64,000 nt of DNA, from assembly GCA_004554165.1 (NCBI GenBank), contig SFNQ01000015.1, positions 3,375 through 67,374 of the forward strand. Reading direction: 5' to 3'. The notes beneath the pieces were generated by a model. That model was given only the letters and a program-made list of their open reading frames with translations, did no database searches and was not told the DNA's origin. The position numbers and the translations under genes are program-made. Positions 1-10,651 of the stretch are shown piece after piece. Within the stretch, counting starts at the first letter, position 1. Every line of letters starts with the position of its first letter. Origin of the DNA: Clostridiales bacterium. Lineage in GTDB: Bacteria > Bacillota > Clostridia > Christensenellales > CAG-138.

Positions 1-1320
1 GATGCTCTGTCCGGTGCGATGGACCTGATCGTGACCAAGTCCGTCAGCCGTTTCGCCCGGAACACCGTGGACAGTCTGGTGACGATACGGAAGTTGAAGG
101 AGAAAGGCGTCGAGGTCTACTTTGAAAAAGAGAACATCTACTCCCTCGACGGTAAGGGTGAGCTGCTTTTGACTATTATGTCGAGCCTCGCGCAGGAGGA
201 GTCCAGGTCTATTTCGGAGAATGTCACATGGGGCCAGCGCAAGCGGTTCTCGGACGGCAAGATCACTCTGCCCTATAAGCAATTTCTCGGATACGATCAC
301 GGACCGAAGAAGGACGATCCGCCGGTGGTAAACAAGGAGCAGGCTGCGATCGTTCGCCGGATCTACCGTGACTTCATGGCTGGGAAGACCGTCGGCGCGA
401 TATCGAGAGAGCTGACCGCTGATGGCATCCCGAGCCCTTCCGGGAAATCGAAGTGGAGCGCATCCACGGTGAATAGCATTCTGCAGAACGAGAAGTATCG
501 CGGGTCGGCATTGCTTCAAAAGTGTTTTACGACAGACTTTTTGACCAAGAAGCGGAAGATCAATGAAGGCGAAGTGCCTCAGTACTATATCGAACACAGC
601 CACGAGGCGATCATTGACCCGGATGAATGGGAGGCCGTTCAGGAGGAGATCAAGCGCCGGAAAGCCATAGGCAGGGCGTACAGCAGCGCCAGCATTTTCA
701 GCGCCAAGATCAAGTGCGGCGACTGCGGCGGATGGTACGGCGGGAAGACATGGCACTCGACCGACAAGTACCGGTCCACGATCTGGCGCTGCAACAGCAA
801 ATATGACGATGGCAAGCACCGCTGCCAGACGCCCACATTGCGGGAAAAGGACATTCAGGACCGGTTCGTTTCCGCGTTCAACAGCATGCAGACCGACCGG
901 ACCGCTTACCTTTTGGCCTGCGAAGTCACGAGAGACGCCTTCGCAGATACAAAAGCCATAGATGCGGAGATGGACGAACTGCTCCGGGAAATGGAGGTGG
1001 TTGCCGAGCTCACGCGGAAATGCATAGCTGAGAACTCCGCAACCGCGCAGGACCAGACCGAGTATACCGATCGGTATAACGCTTACGTTGATCGATACGA
1101 AAAGGCAAAAGCCCGTTACGACTCTCTTGCGGCTGTTCGTGCAGAACGGCTGGCCTCAGCAAAAGCCATGGAAAGATTCATGGCGGTGCTCAACGAGCGT
1201 GAGAACCCTCTCGCAGAGTTCGATCACCGGCTTTGGATCACGACCGTGGACTATGCGACGGTGCAAAGGGATGGAACCATCACATTCCGCTTTTATGACG
1301 GAACAGAGATCACAAAGTGA
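1..1320 (+). CDS. Large serine recombinase, 5' end cut by window edge
   Basis: Frame of ORF 19..1320 stays open to base 1. Resolvase motif TKSVSRFARN, recombinase domain, Cys-rich zinc ribbon KCGDCGG...WRCNSKY...HRC, long helical C-terminal tail. Confidence 0.9.
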   Translation, partial: DALSGAMDLIVTKSVSRFARNTVDSLVTIRKLKEKGVEVYFEKENIYSLDGKGELLLTIMSSLAQEESRSISENVTWGQRKRFSDGKITLPYKQFLGYDHGPKKDDPPVVNKEQAAIVRRIYRDFMAGKTVGAISRELTADGIPSPSGKSKWSASTVNSILQNEKYRGSALLQKCFTTDFLTKKRKINEGEVPQYYIEHSHEAIIDPDEWEAVQEEIKRRKAIGRAYSSASIFSAKIKCGDCGGWYGGKTWHSTDKYRSTIWRCNSKYDDGKHRCQTPTLREKDIQDRFVSAFNSMQTDRTAYLLACEVTRDAFADTKAIDAEMDELLREMEVVAELTRKCIAENSATAQDQTEYTDRYNAYVDRYEKAKARYDSLAAVRAERLASAKAMERFMAVLNERENPLAEFDHRLWITTVDYATVQRDGTITFRFYDGTEITK

Positions 1321-1449
1321 AGTAAGGTGCAAGGAGGCAAGATTACAGGGGTGTCCGTTTTGACCTGTTTTCCGTTCATCTGGAATCGGCAGAGCCCGCG
1401 ATACCCCCGTGAAATAAGGCTTTTCGGGCAATCCGTTCTCTCTGTAAGG

Positions 1450-1500
1450 TTGTAATCCAGAAGTCGATTACAATCTTGAAATATTGCAAGTTTGCAATAT
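1450..1500 (+). promoter_or_regulatory. Two adjacent inverted repeats, candidate operators upstream of the XRE gene
   Basis: TTGTAATC(1450-1457)/GATTACAA(1466-1473) and ATATTGCAA(1481-1489)/TTGCAATAT(1492-1500), perfect arms, in the AT-rich gap before the 1572 start. Confidence 0.45.
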
Positions 1501-1571
1501 GGCAAGTGAAATCGCCCAAACGGCAACGCTTTTTCGCTATAAATAACATGTGCAAGGAAAGGTACCGCACT

Positions 1572-1898
1572 ATGATAGCGAAGTTTTCAACAAGGCTCAG
1601 AGAGCTGCGACAAAGCAAAGGACTGCGTCAGGAACAGGTGGCTAAGCTGATCGGCGTAAACAAAAGCGCGATCTCCACTTATGAGAATGATATCCGGCAG
1701 CCCTCTTTTGAGATACTCGTCCGTCTGGCAAATCTATATCGGGTCAGCACAGATTACCTGCTCGGGCAAACGAACACCCGAACCATAGACCTTTCGGAAC
1801 TGACGGAAGAAGAAGCGAACTACATCTGCGGCCTTGTTGAGCTGATGTCTAAAAAAAACGGAATAATTAATAACACACGAGTATGGAGACGGTCATGA
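1572..1898 (+). CDS. XRE-family helix-turn-helix transcriptional regulator
   Basis: HTH_3 pattern LRELRQSKGLRQEQVAKLIGVNKSAISTYENDIRQPSFEILVRLANLY. ATG 1572 follows AGGAAAGG. The ORF-track start at 1476 was judged too far upstream. Confidence 0.85.
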   Translation: MIAKFSTRLRELRQSKGLRQEQVAKLIGVNKSAISTYENDIRQPSFEILVRLANLYRVSTDYLLGQTNTRTIDLSELTEEEANYICGLVELMSKKNGIINNTRVWRRS

Positions 1899-2869
1899 AG
1901 CAAGGCGACAATTTTCAGTACGAGTACTTTTCCTCTGTCACACAGCGCAAGGTCGAGTGGCTTTGGTATCCATATATCCCTTACGGGAAACTGACGATAC
2001 TGCAGGGTGACCCCGGCGAAGGCAAGTCCACGTTCATGCTCAACATCGCGGCGCTGCTGACCCGGGGCAAAGAGATGCCTGACGGGTTCCGTGTACCCGA
2101 GCCACAGCGGGTCGTGTACCAGACTGCGGAGGATAATCTTTCCGACACCGTGAAACCCCGCCTGGTAGCAGCCGGTGCGGATTGCAGTCGGATCGCATAT
2201 ATCATCGACGAGGATCGGCCTTTGACCTTGGAGGATTCGCGGATCGAAAAAGTGATACAGGAAACGCATGCCCGGCTTTTTATCCTCGACCCGCTGCAGG
2301 CGTATCTGTCTCAGGACTCCGATATGTTCAGCGCAGGCAGGATGCGTCAGCAGCTAAGACGGCTGGCGGATATCGCCTCAAAGCATAAATGCGCCATCGT
2401 AGTGATCGGCCACATGAACAAGGCAAGCGGAGAGAAGAATCTCTACCGAGGCCTTGGAAGCATCGACATCGCCGCCATAGCGCGAAGCGTGCTGATGATC
2501 TCACGGGACAAGGATGACCCCTCGATCCGGTATATGTTTCCGGTCAAATCGAGCCTCGCTCCGGAAGGTGCCGCCATAGCGTTTTCCTTCAATCCGAAGT
2601 CAGGGTTAAGGTGGATCGGTCAATGTCATGTGGATCAAAGTCAGATCGAGGATTTCGATATAGACGACAGCAAGAAGGCGCTGGCAAAACGCATCATACT
2701 TGAAATGCTCAGCGAACAGGATACGCATAGTTCGATCATCCTGAACAAGCTCAAGCTCATGGGCATTTCGGAGCGGACGATACACTCTGCCAAGAAGGAA
2801 GTGGGCGTACAGTCATACAGAAGTGATGGGGTTTGGTACTGGCATTTAGATACCCCGTTAGACACATAA
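1895..2869 (+). CDS. RecA/DnaB-like AAA ATPase (AAA_25-type) with C-terminal winged-helix-like tail
   Basis: WLWYPYIPYGKLTILQGDPGEGKST (Walker A), LFILDP (Walker B-like), VVIGHMNK. ATG 1895 overlaps the XRE stop as ATGA; alternative ATG at 1883. Confidence 0.8.
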   Translation: MKQGDNFQYEYFSSVTQRKVEWLWYPYIPYGKLTILQGDPGEGKSTFMLNIAALLTRGKEMPDGFRVPEPQRVVYQTAEDNLSDTVKPRLVAAGADCSRIAYIIDEDRPLTLEDSRIEKVIQETHARLFILDPLQAYLSQDSDMFSAGRMRQQLRRLADIASKHKCAIVVIGHMNKASGEKNLYRGLGSIDIAAIARSVLMISRDKDDPSIRYMFPVKSSLAPEGAAIAFSFNPKSGLRWIGQCHVDQSQIEDFDIDDSKKALAKRIILEMLSEQDTHSSIILNKLKLMGISERTIHSAKKEVGVQSYRSDGVWYWHLDTPLDT

Positions 2870-2881
2870 AGGAGGAACGCG

Positions 2882-4711
2882 ATGCAGGATAATGGCCGCA
2901 GGGAGCAACTGCGTCAGATCTATCAGCGGGAGGACACAGGAGAAAAAACATTCATTCCGGCAAAGCCGAAGATCAACCCAAATGAACGGGATCGCTTCTT
3001 TCGGGTTTGCGCATATTGTCGTGTCTCGACCGATAACGATGAGCAGCTTTCCTCTTTCGAACTCCAGCAGGCGCATTACCGTCAGCTGGTGCAGGAGCAT
3101 CCGAATTGGGAACTCAAGCACATATTTGCGGATCAGGGCATATCCGGGACCTCACTCAAAAACCGGGACCAGTTCAATGCGATGATCGAAGCGTGCAAAA
3201 AAGGCGAATACGATCTCATACTCACAAAGAGCGTATCCCGTTTTGCACGAAACCTGGTGGACTGCATTTCTTTGATCCGCATGCTGAAAGGCCTGACGCC
3301 ACCCGTCGGCGTTTTCTTTGAAACGGACAATTTGTACACGCTCGGGGAGAACACCGAGTTCATGCTTTCTTTTCTCGCCACGTTCGCACAGGAGGAGTCG
3401 GTCAAGAAGAGTGAGTCCATGAACTGGTCGCTGCAGCAGCGGTTCAAGGATGGAAAGCTCTTGACCCCGGCACCGCTTGGCTACGATCGGGAGAAGGACG
3501 CTGCCGGGCACTACGTCAAATACGCTCCGTTACTGCTGAACGAATCCGAAGCCCGGATCGTCCAGTTCATTTACGACGCGTACCTTGCCGGATGGTCACA
3601 GGAAGGCATCGCGGAACTGCTGAAGGATATCGGCTGCCTGACCAAGACCGGGAGCACGGACTGGACCGCCAGCGCTATAGGCTACATCCTGACAAACGAG
3701 CGCTACGTGGGCAACGTCCTCACATGGAAGACCTTTACCGCCGATCTGTACGAACACAAACATAAGAAGAATAGACAGGATCGTGACCAGTACCTGTACC
3801 ACGACCGGCATCCCGCCATAGTCAGCGTGGAAAAGTTCGAGGCGGTCCAGTCGCTGATACAGAACCGAAAGCATCACGTTCGAGGCGGCCTTCCTTCCCT
3901 CCAAGTCATTGATGAGGGCATATTCCGGGGCTATATCCCGATCAACCACCATTGGGTGAATGACGATCCGCATGTCTACTATGACATTTCCAATTCCGTC
4001 ACCAAGGTCATGAGGGTGAAAACGTTCGACAAACGGTCGTTCAGTGCATTCGATCTTTCGGGGTATCAGGTGGTTCGGAACCAGTTCACGCAGGTCCGGT
4101 ACGAAGGACCTTCCATCACGATCGCGGGCAACCGGATCTCATTCAATCTTTTCTGCATGCGCACCTTTGAGGACGTCGGCTATATCCAGCTGCTCCTTCA
4201 CCCGGCAGAGAGAAAGATTGCTATACGTCCGTGCCGTGAACGCGACACGCACAGTATCCGATGGCGGCCCGATCCCGAAAAAGCGGTGTTCCAGAAAACA
4301 CTGAGCTGTCAACACTTTGGGACAGCCCTCTTCAGCATTATGGAATGGGACCCGGATTACATCTACCGAGTACGCGGAACATGGGCAAAACGCGGTCAGG
4401 AGCAGATCATAGTATTCAATCTCATGAACGCGGTCCCGGCGGTTCTGGTGACTCCCGAGAACGCAGACAGTCCTGCCCGCAGGCGAATGGAACTGTGCCC
4501 TGCGGAATGGTCGGATGACTTTGGCGACGAATTCTATGAGCATGTTCTGGAGAACGGATTCTATTACCTCGCTCCGGACAACGAGTGGAAGACAACGGTG
4601 GCCAGCATTCCTGCTCCGGGGATGGAACAGTTTACTGTCCCGACCGCCGAGCAGATTCAACTAACAATAGAAAACCTAACGAGAGGAACGGAAACACCTA
4701 ATGATGGATGA
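2882..4711 (+). CDS. Large serine recombinase lacking a zinc ribbon, with a novel ~170-aa C-terminal module
   Basis: AGGAGG before ATG 2882. Catalytic region CAYCRVSTD, LTKSVSRFARN, recombinase domain (ERYVGNV, HPAIVSVEKFEAVQ). No CxxC pairs afterwards; instead a module paralogous to the next three ORFs. Confidence 0.9.
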   Translation: MQDNGRREQLRQIYQREDTGEKTFIPAKPKINPNERDRFFRVCAYCRVSTDNDEQLSSFELQQAHYRQLVQEHPNWELKHIFADQGISGTSLKNRDQFNAMIEACKKGEYDLILTKSVSRFARNLVDCISLIRMLKGLTPPVGVFFETDNLYTLGENTEFMLSFLATFAQEESVKKSESMNWSLQQRFKDGKLLTPAPLGYDREKDAAGHYVKYAPLLLNESEARIVQFIYDAYLAGWSQEGIAELLKDIGCLTKTGSTDWTASAIGYILTNERYVGNVLTWKTFTADLYEHKHKKNRQDRDQYLYHDRHPAIVSVEKFEAVQSLIQNRKHHVRGGLPSLQVIDEGIFRGYIPINHHWVNDDPHVYYDISNSVTKVMRVKTFDKRSFSAFDLSGYQVVRNQFTQVRYEGPSITIAGNRISFNLFCMRTFEDVGYIQLLLHPAERKIAIRPCRERDTHSIRWRPDPEKAVFQKTLSCQHFGTALFSIMEWDPDYIYRVRGTWAKRGQEQIIVFNLMNAVPAVLVTPENADSPARRRMELCPAEWSDDFGDEFYEHVLENGFYYLAPDNEWKTTVASIPAPGMEQFTVPTAEQIQLTIENLTRGTETPNDG

Positions 4712-5303
4712 TCAAACTGAACAGATTTTCACGAACGCAGAAGTAATCACCGAAGCCGACGCCGAAACGGAGGTCCTTGCGGATCTCGCAGGGTACCAGG
4801 TCACCAAGGCAGAATTGTTCTCCCATACACGGGAGCCCGCCATTACGATCTGGGAGTCCCGGATCAAATTCAATATGGCCTGCCTGAGGAAATTTCCGAA
4901 TGTCACCCACATCCAGATCCTGATCCATCCGGAGCAAAAGCGGCTCATCATCCGCCCGTGTGAACCGGACGCACCGGATTCCCTTCGCTGGGCAAAGGGC
5001 GGCGGCGATAAGGAGCTCACAAACAGGGACCTGCTGTGCAGGCTGTTTGCCGCGAAGATTTTTGACCTGATGGGCTGGGATAATCAGTACCGCTATAAGA
5101 TGATGGGCAAACCCGCCGTGTACAACAACGAGGTCCTGTTCCTTTTCAGACTAACGGATTTTGAGCTGTTCACGAACGGGAAAAAGTCGAAATCGTATCT
5201 TCCCGGTGAGTGGCGGGATTACTTCGGCACGCCTGTCGAGCAGCATGAGGAATCATTCAAGATCGATCTTGCGGATGGATACATCACAACAACTAAAGCC
5301 TAA
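4701..5303 (+). CDS. Hypothetical protein, paralog of the recombinase C-terminal module
   Basis: Shares ordered motifs with residues ~395-560 of ORF 2882..4711 (GYQV, ITIW.SRIKFN, IQILIHPEQKRLIIRPC, SLRW, GWDNQYRY, LFLFRL, PGEWRDYFG). Start overlaps the recombinase stop. Confidence 0.7.
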   Translation: MMDDQTEQIFTNAEVITEADAETEVLADLAGYQVTKAELFSHTREPAITIWESRIKFNMACLRKFPNVTHIQILIHPEQKRLIIRPCEPDAPDSLRWAKGGGDKELTNRDLLCRLFAAKIFDLMGWDNQYRYKMMGKPAVYNNEVLFLFRLTDFELFTNGKKSKSYLPGEWRDYFGTPVEQHEESFKIDLADGYITTTKA

Positions 5304-5317
5304 GGAGGGTGAACACA

Positions 5318-5764
5318 ATGATAAACATGGAAGAATTGAACCTTGACGGATTTCAGATCGTGAAATCTGAAATGTTTCTACACCTGCCGCGTAAAGCCGA
5401 TCCGACTTGTACCATTTGGCCTACAAAAATATCGTTCAGCCGCATGACTCTTCAAGCGTTGAACAACTGTGAATATGTCCGGCTTGAGGTGAATCCAAGC
5501 ACCAAATGCCTGCTGTTAGCGCCGACCCATTCCAGCGACAAAGATAGCATCAGATGGATCAAGGGTCAGAAGGAATTCAGCGTTCGAAATATGGAATCCC
5601 GACAGTTTGGCGAAGAGGTTTATAAAGCATGGGGGCTTGATAAACAATACAATTTCCGGGCAGTCGGTCGGCTCGTATCTGCGCGAAACAAGATTATGAT
5701 GCTATTCGATTTTTCAACTGCCGAAATGTGGAAGACAAAAAAGGTAGGTAATCAAGGTGAATGA
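5318..5764 (+). CDS. Hypothetical protein, second stand-alone paralog of the same module
   Basis: GFQIV, TIWPTKISFSR, YVRLEVNPSTKCLLLAP, SIRW, WGLDKQYNFRAVG, MMLFDF. ATG 5318 lies 8-9 nt after AAGGAGGG; the track start at 5309 is GTG. Confidence 0.7.
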   Translation: MINMEELNLDGFQIVKSEMFLHLPRKADPTCTIWPTKISFSRMTLQALNNCEYVRLEVNPSTKCLLLAPTHSSDKDSIRWIKGQKEFSVRNMESRQFGEEVYKAWGLDKQYNFRAVGRLVSARNKIMMLFDFSTAEMWKTKKVGNQGE

Positions 5765-6125
5765 GACCTATATATCCTTTTACTTAAGATCCAATAAGAT
5801 ACATCTTTTTGTAGATTCGCTCCGGAATATGGGAAGCCCGTCCCGGATCTGCTTCATGGTTGAGGAGAGCGGCGATACGCTGCTGGTTTCTCCATATGGG
5901 AAGCGGGACTTCAAATCGCACAGCGTGCCAACGGATGTTTATAAGGGGACGGGCGGTATGGAGGTTAACAGTTTCAAGCTCTGCCGAATCATAGCCGACC
6001 TCCATCATTGGGACCTCTCCCGATCTTATCGCGTTCCCGGTAAAGTGTACCCGGAGCAGAAGGTGGCCATTTTTAATCTTTCAGAGGCCGAGGTGATTGA
6101 CCGCGCTGAGAGCGATATGCCCTGA
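5757..6125 (+). CDS. Hypothetical protein, divergent third paralog
   Basis: GTG 5757 after AAGGTAGG, overlapping the previous stop. Weaker version of the same pattern (KIHLFVDSL, ICFMVEESGDTLLVSP, WDLSRSYRVPGKV, VAIFNL). Confidence 0.55.
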   Translation: MNETYISFYLRSNKIHLFVDSLRNMGSPSRICFMVEESGDTLLVSPYGKRDFKSHSVPTDVYKGTGGMEVNSFKLCRIIADLHHWDLSRSYRVPGKVYPEQKVAIFNLSEAEVIDRAESDMP

Positions 6126-6261
6126 TGCACCCCTCCCTCCAGAAATGCACCCCTCCCTGTGGCTAAATGCACCCCGCCCCACAGCAATTTGCACCCCACC
6201 CCATAGTTAAATGCACCCCGCCCCATGCCAAAATGCACCCCGGGAAGCAAGGTGGGGTGCA
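6126..6261 (+). repeat. Iteron-like array: six direct TGCACCCC-core repeats at 20/22-bp spacing, ending in an inverted copy
   Basis: TGCACCCC starts at 6126, 6146, 6168, 6190, 6212 and 6234. The extended core is TGCACCCC[T/G/A]CCC. GGGGTGCA at 6254-6261 forms a palindrome with the sixth copy. Confidence 0.85.
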
Positions 6262-6476
6262 TTGGTATCCAAATTAGCGTGATTTGCCACGAAGCCCGCA
6301 GTTCTGATGCCGCCGGTAAACCCGTCCCGCTTCGATACGCAGGCCAGAACCAGACCCACCAGCCCTGTAACCAGCGAAACCCAGGGCGTAATAAACAGAA
6401 AAACATCCGCAACAATGCCCAAAACCAGACTGGCAATGGCCTTACCTCTGCCCGGTACCGGCGCTCCGCTTTCCAT
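6207..6476 (-). CDS. Small membrane protein (DUF4190-like by pattern)
   Basis: Two hydrophobic helices GKAIASLVLGIVADVFLFITPWVSLVTGLVGLVLACV. ATG at 6476. The 3' tail runs into the iteron array, so the true end is uncertain. Confidence 0.5.
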   Translation of the reverse strand: MESGAPVPGRGKAIASLVLGIVADVFLFITPWVSLVTGLVGLVLACVSKRDGFTGGIRTAGFVANHANLDTNAPHLASRGAFWHGAGCI

Positions 6477-6542
6477 ACAACCATCCCCGCTTTCCTTTGA
6501 ATACTTGCGGCAGACATTTTTTCTGTACTGTCGCACATCCTA

Positions 6543-6587
6543 TTTTAGATAATATTTATCTAAAAGTCAATAGACAAATATTATCTA
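6543..6587. promoter_or_regulatory. Perfect palindrome plus a repeated half-site in a divergent promoter region, candidate XRE operator
   Basis: TTTTAGATAA-TAT-TTATCTAAAA at 6543-6565, with 10-bp perfect arms. The half-site TTATCTA recurs at 6581-6587. Confidence 0.5.
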
Positions 6588-6646
6588 TACTATAGTTGGG
6601 AGCAGCCCGACCGGCTGAGTTTTGAAGTAAGCGTGGTGCTGCTTGT

Positions 6647-6859
6647 TTGAAAAACCGCATCAAAGATTTGCGAGAGGACCATGATCTCACGCAGCGGCAG
6701 ATTGCCGATGGCATCGGAATTACCCAGAGAAAATACAGCTATATCGAAACGGGCGTTCAACCCCTGACGGACGATTTGCTGGTGCGGCTTGCGCGCTACT
6801 ATGGCGTCAGCATCGACTATCTGCTGCTGCAAACGGACAATCCCAAAAGGAATCCCTAG
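6647..6859 (+). CDS. XRE-family helix-turn-helix transcriptional regulator
   Basis: 70 aa: LREDHDLTQRQIADGIGITQRKYSYIETGVQPLTDDLLVRLARYYGVSIDYLL. TTG start. Confidence 0.85.
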   Translation: MKNRIKDLREDHDLTQRQIADGIGITQRKYSYIETGVQPLTDDLLVRLARYYGVSIDYLLLQTDNPKRNP

Positions 6860-7007
6860 CCTGTCGCCGGACCCCGTCGGTGCGCAGCGAATTGCGCCGC
6901 CCCCTTTGTCTGTCACGCCGGCCATCCCCCGGGATTTGCAGCAGCAGTAGGAGGCGCAACAGCCCGTGCGGCTGCCGCCATATTGAGGGAAGGCGCCCCT
7001 GCGGGGC

Positions 7008-8364: not shown

Positions 8365-10651
<2,287 letters not shown>

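Follow-up and report, generated by a model that had tools for sequence, protein, structure and literature searches.

Introduction

The attachment sites of the Bxb1, phiC31, A118 and SPbeta integrases are imperfect inverted repeats of ~48 bp around a central dinucleotide that lies at the exact boundary; no target duplication past 2-3 bp is seen, and the recombinase genes lie beside the site. Directionality factors of these large serine recombinases (LSRs) act on the integrase, not on flanking DNA. Characterised sites of this kind are self-sufficient at less than 50 bp (PMC1470463). Here, we describe a locus of a Clostridiales bacterium that shares the general features of these sites, but in which the core is accompanied by two to six phased repeats on one side and one to four on the other. 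The locus lies in a 64-kb stretch of contig SFNQ01000015.1 (positions 3,375 to 67,374; assembly GCA_004554165.1), hereafter called the window. A preliminary description of the window noted six phased repeats with a core of TGCACCCC and proposed that they represent a replication origin, a partition site or a binding array for the products of adjacent genes. Comparison with independent insertions establishes this array as the subterminal part of the right end (attR) of an element apparently moved by LSRs of the SR1 or LSR-B type introduced below. Across the compared sequences, the array abuts the presumed crossover site in a fixed register, does so on both arms, and is kept when the cargo changes as well as in passenger elements. 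Judged by sequence, the core is an ordinary LSR site; the unusual part is the flanking array, whose structure is well established and to which we assign a function with moderate confidence. Unlike canonical LSR systems, the module described here has two tandem recombinase genes and is found at many different insertion sites, often by host terminator hairpins.

Several other systems combine a recombination or replication site with short phased repeats. In attP sites of the lambda type, arm and Xis sites likewise form short direct repeats outside the core on both arms, which are split between attL and attR on integration. The proteins that bind there are Xis, IHF, Fis and the tyrosine integrase, the last through its N-terminal arm-binding domain. 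Unlike lambda attP, the locus described here involves no tyrosine recombinase, the likeness being one of analogy, and we know of no arm-binding domain in serine recombinases. Res sites (sites II and III of Tn3/gamma-delta; site II of Sin) come closer with regard to the enzyme, as a serine recombinase uses extra sites beside the crossover to build a regulatory synaptic complex, and Sin site II is a direct repeat, as here. These accessory sites are, however, extra half-sites of small resolvases, whereas the enzymes of our locus are large serine recombinases and the repeat unit is unlike the att arm, both in the window and in the module alignment described below, which argues against the repeats being extra half-sites of the core. 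We regard lambda arm/Xis sites and res accessory sites as the nearest functional analogies and claim no family membership. The subterminal transposase sites of Tn7 and Mu are similar in that ~22-bp repeats lie inside terminal inverted repeats in unequal numbers at the two ends, but they are mutually inverted between the ends and bound by DDE transposases, whereas our repeats point in the same direction at both ends and the recombinases are serine enzymes. Finally, lambda-type origin iterons, carried by an HTH_36/DnaT gene that is followed by a lambda-P-like gene, share TGCACCCC, the ~22-bp phasing and the succession of a direct run and a palindromic pair. They sit inside initiator coding sequence, however, whereas in Clostridia the arrays are found outside coding sequence, at element termini, and no initiator of this kind is encoded in their vicinity; the common 8-mer may simply reflect our search pattern.

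Structure of the array and the element terminus

The six direct copies of TGCACCCC span positions 6126-6241 of the window on the plus strand, with a spacing of 20, 22, 22, 22 and 22 bp between starts (Table 1), and one inverted copy follows on the minus strand at 6254-6261. Seven of the eight TGCACCCC occurrences in the 64-kb window belong to this array; 2.98 +/- 1.70 occurrences were expected, and none of 100 shuffles reached eight. Tandem Repeats Finder reported the stretch 6143-6242 with a period of 22, 4.5 copies and a score of 109. The coordinates and phasing given in the preliminary description were exact, and so was its placement of the first base of the array directly 3' of the stop codon (TGA, 6123-6125) of open reading frame (ORF) 5757-6125. 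The pairing of the last direct copy with the inverted one was confirmed as well, the arms in fact extending to 10 nt each (6232-6241 and 6254-6263) with 100% complementarity and a 12-nt gap. The extended core TGCACCCC[T/G/A]CCC that had been ascribed to every copy, in turn, is limited to copies 1-5; copy 6 reads TGCACCCCGGGA and lacks the CCC.

Core and spacer differ in conservation, a comparison that the preliminary description had suggested. Across 17 distinct homologous ends, and at the positions that the search pattern left free, conservation extends to core position 7, to the CCC (positions 9-11) and to an A-rich lead-in; position 8 and positions 12-17 of the spacer are variable. When seven six-copy modules were aligned, the same picture of kept cores and variable spacers emerged: the TGCACCCC cores are invariant, as are the final 40 bp (GGGGTGCATTGGTATCCAAATTAGCGTGATTTGCCA), and divergence is total past CCA. 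In one of the related loci (L072), the palindrome has the same arms as in the window around a different loop. A G-quadruplex on the minus strand was considered and rejected, as GGGG-N-GGGG occurs only in window-type units and is missing from the other two end types.

The position of the array became apparent from insertions of related elements elsewhere. Locus L241 is 99.98% identical to window positions 1493-6289 and carries different DNA beyond, L242 behaves likewise, and two further loci (L011 and L072) match only window positions 6116-6289, the genes upstream and the DNA downstream being different. In all four, as in L244-L254, homology ends after ...TTTGCCA and the flanks are unrelated, and more than 15 independent insertions part ways right after ...GATTTGCCA (6289). 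Similarly, a search with the arm plus the palindrome returned 11 metagenome contigs, all of them right ends with unrelated flanks and one to six repeat copies. The shared segment 6116-6289, together with the divergence past CCA in independent insertions, shows that position 6289 is the right terminus of a mobile element. The G+C content is 0.47-0.58 up to ~7000 and ~0.64 beyond, and this step near 7000 places the array near the edge of foreign DNA. Past the terminus, a G+C content of 0.53-0.56 persists for ~700 bp (~6290-7000) before the rise to ~0.64; the target gene and an HTH gene beyond 6289 may be part of an older island and not of the core chromosome.

The element has entered a small membrane-protein gene on the minus strand, ORF 6207-6476, which passes through the last two repeats and the palindrome. 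This overlap had raised the possibility that the array is nothing but the coding 3' end of that gene, preserved by constraint at the protein level. Of the ORF, however, only residues 62-89 match other loci, and the match is always the array itself, the same DNA standing beside unrelated sequence in the more than 15 other insertions. Because only this tail recurs, the coding alternative fails, and we rate its probability as practically negligible. The ORF is better described as a target gene that was disrupted at 6289 and whose last ~28 codons consist of element DNA. Its match to DUF4190 in Pfam is weak (E = 1.6e-4) and below the curated cut-off.

Four loci (L241, L249, L252 and L254) revealed the likely attachment site itself, as here the right end meets a left end of the same family in a tandem or circle junction. 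The arm continues into GAAGGACTCTAATTTGGATAC, and the two together make up an imperfect palindrome of 48 bp with the form GTATCCAAATTAG-N22-CTAATTTGGATAC; the full junction reads GGTATCCAAATTAGCGTGATTTGC-CA-TAGAAGGACTCTAATTTGGATAC, with 13-bp outer inverted motifs. Another locus (L251) contains a complete 4.4-kb element between such ends, and its two junctions share only CCA, that is 2-3 bp at most; this is in line with a 2-bp crossover and excludes a duplication of the transposase type. Comparison of the junctions points to CA (6288-6289) as the crossover dinucleotide. With an imperfect inverted repeat of ~40-50 bp, an element boundary at its centre and an LSR encoded nearby, the right terminus has the hallmarks of an LSR attachment site, and we interpret it as attR, the P-arm side of attP.

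Association of the array with the attachment-site arm

To survey the distribution of the array, genome and viral collections were scanned for three TGCACCCC copies 11-15 nt apart, a pattern for which we estimate ~0.1 chance matches in the genome collection. The scan returned at least 120 stretches in each collection, and the matches listed fall into two classes, one inside an initiator gene (class 1) and one at element ends (class 2). Class 2 arrays come from Clostridia (Oscillospiraceae, Acutalibacteraceae, Lachnospiraceae, Ruminococcus and others) and are non-coding. They have two to six copies, in some cases plus an inverted one, and then a terminal arm, for which three related types exist: GTATCAAAATTAGGGTTAGTCTTCA, TCTATCAAAATTAGAGTCATTTGCCA and the window type. 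Among the matches listed, 131 loci belong to class 1; they come from Pseudomonas, Actinobacteria, other Proteobacteria and viral contigs. Here, three to six TGCACCCC(G) repeats with a palindromic pair, spaced 22, 22, 19 and 30, lie inside an ORF of ~247 amino acids (aa) that has HTH_36 and DnaT domains and is followed by a lambda-P-like gene (for example, L198 6708-7451; L023 201-330). Given this gene context, class 1 arrays can be taken as lambda-type origin iterons inside an initiator gene.

The search of other genomes and elements for the same array, also proposed at the outset, recovered it at 64 distinct right ends from gut Clostridia, with two to six copies at a spacing of 19-23 bp (mode, 21-22). 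The distance between array and arm is tightly constrained: where the inverted copy is absent, as in 29 of the 64 right ends, the arm motif TATC begins 21 nt past the last repeat in 22 of the 29, and where it is present, the arm motif follows 31-34 nt past the last repeat. Left ends read TGG(C/G)AAAT..CTAATTTTGATAAAA and continue with three to four TGCACCCC copies in the orientation seen at the right end. Repeats outside the core and in a fixed register are thereby found on both arms (left ends L004, L018, L074, L093, L097 and L405, the last being the one new left end recovered by a left-arm scan of viral contigs). Window-type left ends have a single TGCACCCC copy, which comes after a hairpin.

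As an independent test of the link between array and arm, viral contigs were scanned with the arm only, that is without reference to the repeat. Of 26 matches, 23 carried two to four TGCACCCC copies immediately upstream. One further match (L273) carried TGAACCCCC twice and GGGGGGTTCA once, so that the direct copies and both arms of the hairpin co-vary. The motif also differs by lineage, with TGAACCCC, TGCACAAC and, in opposite orientation, AGGGTGCGAA as variants; L004 has TGCACAAC three times at one end and TGCACCCC at the other, and L435 has five AGGGTGCGAA units in opposite orientation. Across elements of 32-63% GC with three arm sequences, the core 8-mer is invariant and the spacers are divergent. 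A scan of viral contigs with the 14-mer TTCTATCAAAATTA yielded only chance matches in AT-rich viruses.

These data bear on whether the array does anything at all. A functionally neutral tandem repeat, its copy number driven by slippage, could travel along with a conserved terminus, and this would account for copy numbers ranging from one to six among near-identical ends and for two arm-only matches that have no array. Slippage sits poorly, however, with an 8-mer that stays invariant while the spacers diverge over so wide a range of GC content and arm sequences, with the fixed register relative to the arm, with the presence of the array at both ends and with the concerted change of direct and inverted copies in L273. 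Overall, we consider neutrality quite unlikely.

Recombinases and passenger genes

SR1, the recombinase whose gene is cut by the start of the window, is an ortholog of a 528-aa recombinase, LSR-B, and is 63-74% identical to the enzyme encoded ~70-200 nt upstream of the array in L206, L172, L245, L246 and L250. In L245, L246 and L250, two repeats, the palindrome and the arm come immediately after the gene of the SR1 ortholog (74% identical). In contrast, the window and L253 have a 4.7-kb block of HTH, AAA_25, SR2 and paralog genes inserted between SR1 and the array, and in L072 a p122 homolog and the array are separated by 1.3 kb of other DNA. The comparison of loci with and without intervening DNA shows that the array remains at the terminus despite such cargo and that the SR1-type recombinase goes with it. 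On this sequence evidence, SR1 is most likely the recombinase that uses the attachment site.

LSR-B is part of a four-gene module, which encodes a 133-aa protein (phrog_2308) that combines an HTH with two zinc ribbons, a 52-aa protein, LSR-A (437 aa) and LSR-B (528 aa), and at least 560 relatives of the phrog_2308/LSR/LSR module exist in IMG/VR. Searches of the 133-aa protein against NCBIfam, PHROGs and PDB sequences gave nothing past phrog_2308, which is annotated as 'unknown function'. All four products, LSR-A, LSR-B and the 133-aa and 52-aa proteins, are candidates for binding the array; the genes of the two small proteins keep their place just upstream of the recombinase genes. In other lineages, the same recombinase module is followed by ATAAATTTAACG in three copies at 19 bp (L445, 9576-9632) or by TTTAACGATTTGC with a palindrome (L473, ~9580-9700).

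The genes directly upstream of the array had been proposed to encode its binding proteins. Residues 390-554 of SR2 show homology with p200 (E = 7.5e-28), with p151 (E = 1.6e-11) and, at a weak level, with p122; the paralog cluster thus extends into SR2, where the homologous region stands in the place in which a zinc-ribbon match is usual. No Pfam, NCBIfam or PHROG match was found for p200, p151 or p122; some p200 homologs carry the NCBI name 'integrase'. As the paralogs share a domain with the recombinase C terminus, DNA binding is conceivable, and the array begins on the base past the p122 stop codon. However, four loci (L255-L258) contain a homologous block, encoding AAA_25, a 608-aa recombinase, p200 (77% identical), p154 and p124, without any TGCACCCC in loci of up to 19 kb. 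Here, the block (for example, L255 5840-10600) forms the end of a different element, which carries ParA, ParB and a large SpaA-type surface protein, and it abuts the 3' end of radC. Conversely, the array occurs without the block in L245, L246, L250, L172 and many other loci, unrelated genes lie upstream of it in L011, L244 and L251, and in L072 the 1.3-kb gap parts it from the p122 homolog. With the array missing from otherwise homologous elements, the proposal of a binding array for p200, p151, p122, the SR2 C-terminal domain or the AAA_25 ATPase falls, and we regard it as highly improbable. The block rather appears to be passenger DNA that lies between a recombinase gene and its site and is not functionally tied to the array.

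The same loci speak to the suggestion of a centromere-like partition site of parS or parC type. Phased direct repeats do serve as centromeres in some partition systems. Yet no ParA, ParB, ParM or ParR gene is present among ORFs 19-6859 (window 1-6.9 kb), and none adjoins the array; in the related element with genes for ParA and ParB, the array is missing; and integrated prophages and small elements without a recombinase carry it. A partition function is very improbable on these grounds.

Table 1. Coordinates of the array, the putative attachment-site arm and neighbouring features (window positions unless a locus is named)
Feature	Position	Strand	Details
Direct repeats 1-5	6126..6233	+	(A/T)TGCACCCC-N-CCC, then variable spacer with A/T-rich end; starts 6126, 6146, 6168, 6190, 6212
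Sixth direct copy (6234-6241) and inverted copy (6254-6261)	6234..6261	+	Full arms AATGCACCCC / GGGGTGCATT at 6232-6263
Putative element-side arm (P arm) of serine-recombinase attachment site	6264..6289	+	GGTATCCAAATTAGCGTGATTTGCCA; inferred crossover dinucleotide CA at 6288-6289
SR1, large serine recombinase truncated by window start	19..1320	+	Pfam Resolvase, Recombinase, Zn_ribbon_recom
HTH_3 protein, AAA_25 ATPase, SR2, p200, p151, p122	1476..6125	+	4.7-kb block between SR1 and array
HTH_3 protein	1476-1898		
AAA_25 ATPase	1883-2869		
SR2, 609-aa serine recombinase	2882-4711		No zinc-ribbon match
Target-side part of small membrane ORF 6207-6476	6290..6476	-	ORF interrupted by insertion; tail 6207-6289 is read-through into element DNA
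Four-gene recombination module	L172 10113-13615; L253 1569-5015		Catalytic serine motif kept in LSR-A and LSR-B

Elements that carry the array

One carrier is a siphovirus prophage that encodes tail proteins, a holin, an amidase and two LSRs, followed by a terminator, four repeats and the arm. It is related to Ca. Heliusvirales phages; a GenBank relative of this Ca. Heliusvirales-group phage has annotated genes for a DNA polymerase, a helicase and a Gp2.5-like SSB. Neither array nor arm is found in the record of GenBank phage PV036413, whose LSR-B is 94.7% identical, and which appears to be trimmed near gene boundaries, so that an intact attP could not be expected in it. Other carriers are non-phage islands (window type) and complete elements of 3.4-4.4 kb that lie between the same attachment-site arms and repeats and have cargo but no recombinase or replication genes (L251, 71-4469; L004, 433-3831). 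The latter are presumably mobilised in trans; we take their cargo to be a serpin-like protein and a lipoprotein, read from sequence without a Pfam scan, or a DUF4041/T5orf172 protein. The common feature of the carriers is a recombination module, not a replication, packaging or transfer module. In addition, three loci (L015, with ends 826 nt apart, L037 and L073) contain tandem runs of array, terminal arm and terminator-like hairpin with a single small gene between ends, a layout that looks like cassettes accumulated at one site. Flanks vary by insertion and are often host intrinsic-terminator-like hairpins (for example, L267, L270, L262 and L277). The occurrence of the same prophage end at many targets suggests a multi-target serine recombinase with a preference for palindromic terminators. 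Genes upstream of the Clostridial ends are diverse cargo, mostly without a Pfam match; when the ORFs located up to 3 kb from the arrays were clustered all against all, these ends proved to have no protein family in common.

This inventory is informative with respect to an iteron-type replication origin, the first function put forward for the array. In such an origin, an initiator would bind the 22-bp-phased repeats, with the inverted copy as an operator-like dimer site; possibly, such an origin would become complete only after excision, when the copies of the left and right ends would meet in the circle around the att core, which is AT-rich. The geometry is classic for iterons, with six copies at a period of 22 and spacings of 19-23 bp across the 64 ends. 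Moreover, the window element encodes an AAA_25 (RepA/DnaB-like) ATPase, and the HTH_36/DnaT initiator genes of the 131 class 1 loci among the matches listed contain this 8-mer in the same arrangement, direct copies first and then a palindrome. However, when six-frame ORFs from the window and the Clostridial loci were searched with a hidden Markov model of the HTH_36 initiator N terminus, none matched. No family of initiators accompanies the array, and the AAA_25 module and the array are each found without the other. The carriers include a prophage of the Ca. Heliusvirales group, a relative of which has its own replication genes, as well as the 3-4-kb elements, in which the array is kept without replication proteins or a recombinase. 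DnaA boxes do not form a cluster: the region has a single match with one mismatch (6158-6166), and the total for the window is below chance. Finally, an origin would have no need to keep a fixed register with the att arm. The origin proposal accordingly loses its footing, and we hold an origin to be unlikely.

A possible accessory role at the attachment site

The broader idea behind the preliminary description, that phased direct repeats on one face of the DNA form a protein-binding array of a mobile element, still fits, even though its specific candidates, namely an origin, a partition site and a target of the paralogs or the AAA_25 ATPase, fail. We favour a reading in which the array provides phased accessory protein-binding sites of the attachment site that would shape or regulate recombination at the adjacent core, and we give this reading a probability of about one half. 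Once the element is excised as a circle, unidirectional repeats would lie to either side of the core. Each unit of ~21-22 bp would bind one sequence-specific protein, with all copies on one DNA face, and the last direct copy and the inverted copy would together form a dimer-type site beside the core. The bound array could then act as an accessory, arm-like module through synapsis, directionality or partner choice, a role that we liken to that of lambda arm sites and res accessory sites, which do this for other recombinases. The terminal hairpin might, in addition, end transcription of cargo genes whose stop codon lies only a few bases ahead of the array.

Transcription could also be the primary business of the array, which would then consist of operator or roadblock sites for a regulator of the element plus a palindrome that terminates inward genes, thereby insulating the element end. 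In many ends, cargo genes stop 2-12 nt before the array, and the hairpin formed in RNA by copy 6 and the inverted copy is stable (dG -22.6 kcal/mol, z = -2.65). The commonest palindrome-bearing ends have TTTGTAT after the palindrome, and where the palindrome is lacking, a separate terminator follows the upstream recombinase gene ahead of the array. Left-end arrays in L074 and L093 lie ~40 nt upstream of a promoter-like TTGACA/TATAAT pair. On the other hand, a terminator scan of 5700-6900 found none, the window hairpin being followed by GGTATCC instead of a T-run, and the inverted copy is absent from about half of the ends (29 of 64). Direct repeats would be superfluous for termination, and their change along with both hairpin arms in L273 points to recognition by a protein rather than to RNA structure alone. 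A purely transcriptional array is unlikely in our view, although it deserves some weight.

Several observations also weigh against an accessory role in recombination. The geometry of the array is equally that of iterons, and its retention in recombinase-less elements is equally explained by any other cis-acting role. Two of the 26 arm-only matches, identical to each other, lack the array, which may thus not be strictly required. Many relatives of the phrog_2308/LSR/LSR module, their termini unmapped, show no obvious array within a few hundred bases past the recombinase gene. Among the candidate binding proteins, the HTH recognition helix of phrog_2308 (NTVKS) is the same whatever repeat motif follows, with no covariation, and the overall identity of LSR-A or LSR-B fails to separate the motif classes. 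We are aware of no arm-binding domain in large serine integrases. Lastly, characterised large serine integrases use small sites of less than 50 bp (PMC1470463).

Extending the accessory-site reading beyond the window, it is possible, albeit tentative, that a large tandem-LSR lineage of gut Clostridia, which spans prophages, islands and mini-elements with a single gene, relies on an extended attachment site made of a ~50-bp core and phased unidirectional sites for an accessory factor or a second recombinase. If so, an arm-site or res-like higher-order complex would exist in a family for which minimal sites and directionality factors made of protein alone are believed to suffice, and there would be a new DNA-binding specificity to look for. 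LSRs are valued in genome engineering because they are thought to need short, accessory-free sites; a widespread natural lineage with phased flanking repeats at all of its attachment sites would imply unrecognised control of directionality, partner choice or the mobilisation of recombinase-less passengers. In practical terms, array plus terminal arm is a sharp marker for element ends in gut metagenomes, including those of Ca. Heliusvirales-like prophages, where the borders of serine-integrase prophages are otherwise hard to call.

Further sequence searches and neighbouring features

A scan with the Rfam 15 covariance models gave two matches far under the gathering scores, neither of them inside the array. 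BLASTN of positions 4701-6700 against plasmid and phage collections returned no match, and a literature search for the 8-mer TGCACCCC returned primer sequences only. On the target side of the terminus, a 22-nt AT-rich inverted repeat (6541-6592; 86% complementary) with half-sites of the TAGATAATATTTATCTA type overlaps promoter-like hexamers in the gap that separates the interrupted membrane ORF from an XRE-type HTH gene (6647-6859). The top NCBIfam match of this gene is an RstR-family repressor, at a score below the cut-off of that model. The inverted repeat is probably the operator of this adjacent XRE-type regulator.

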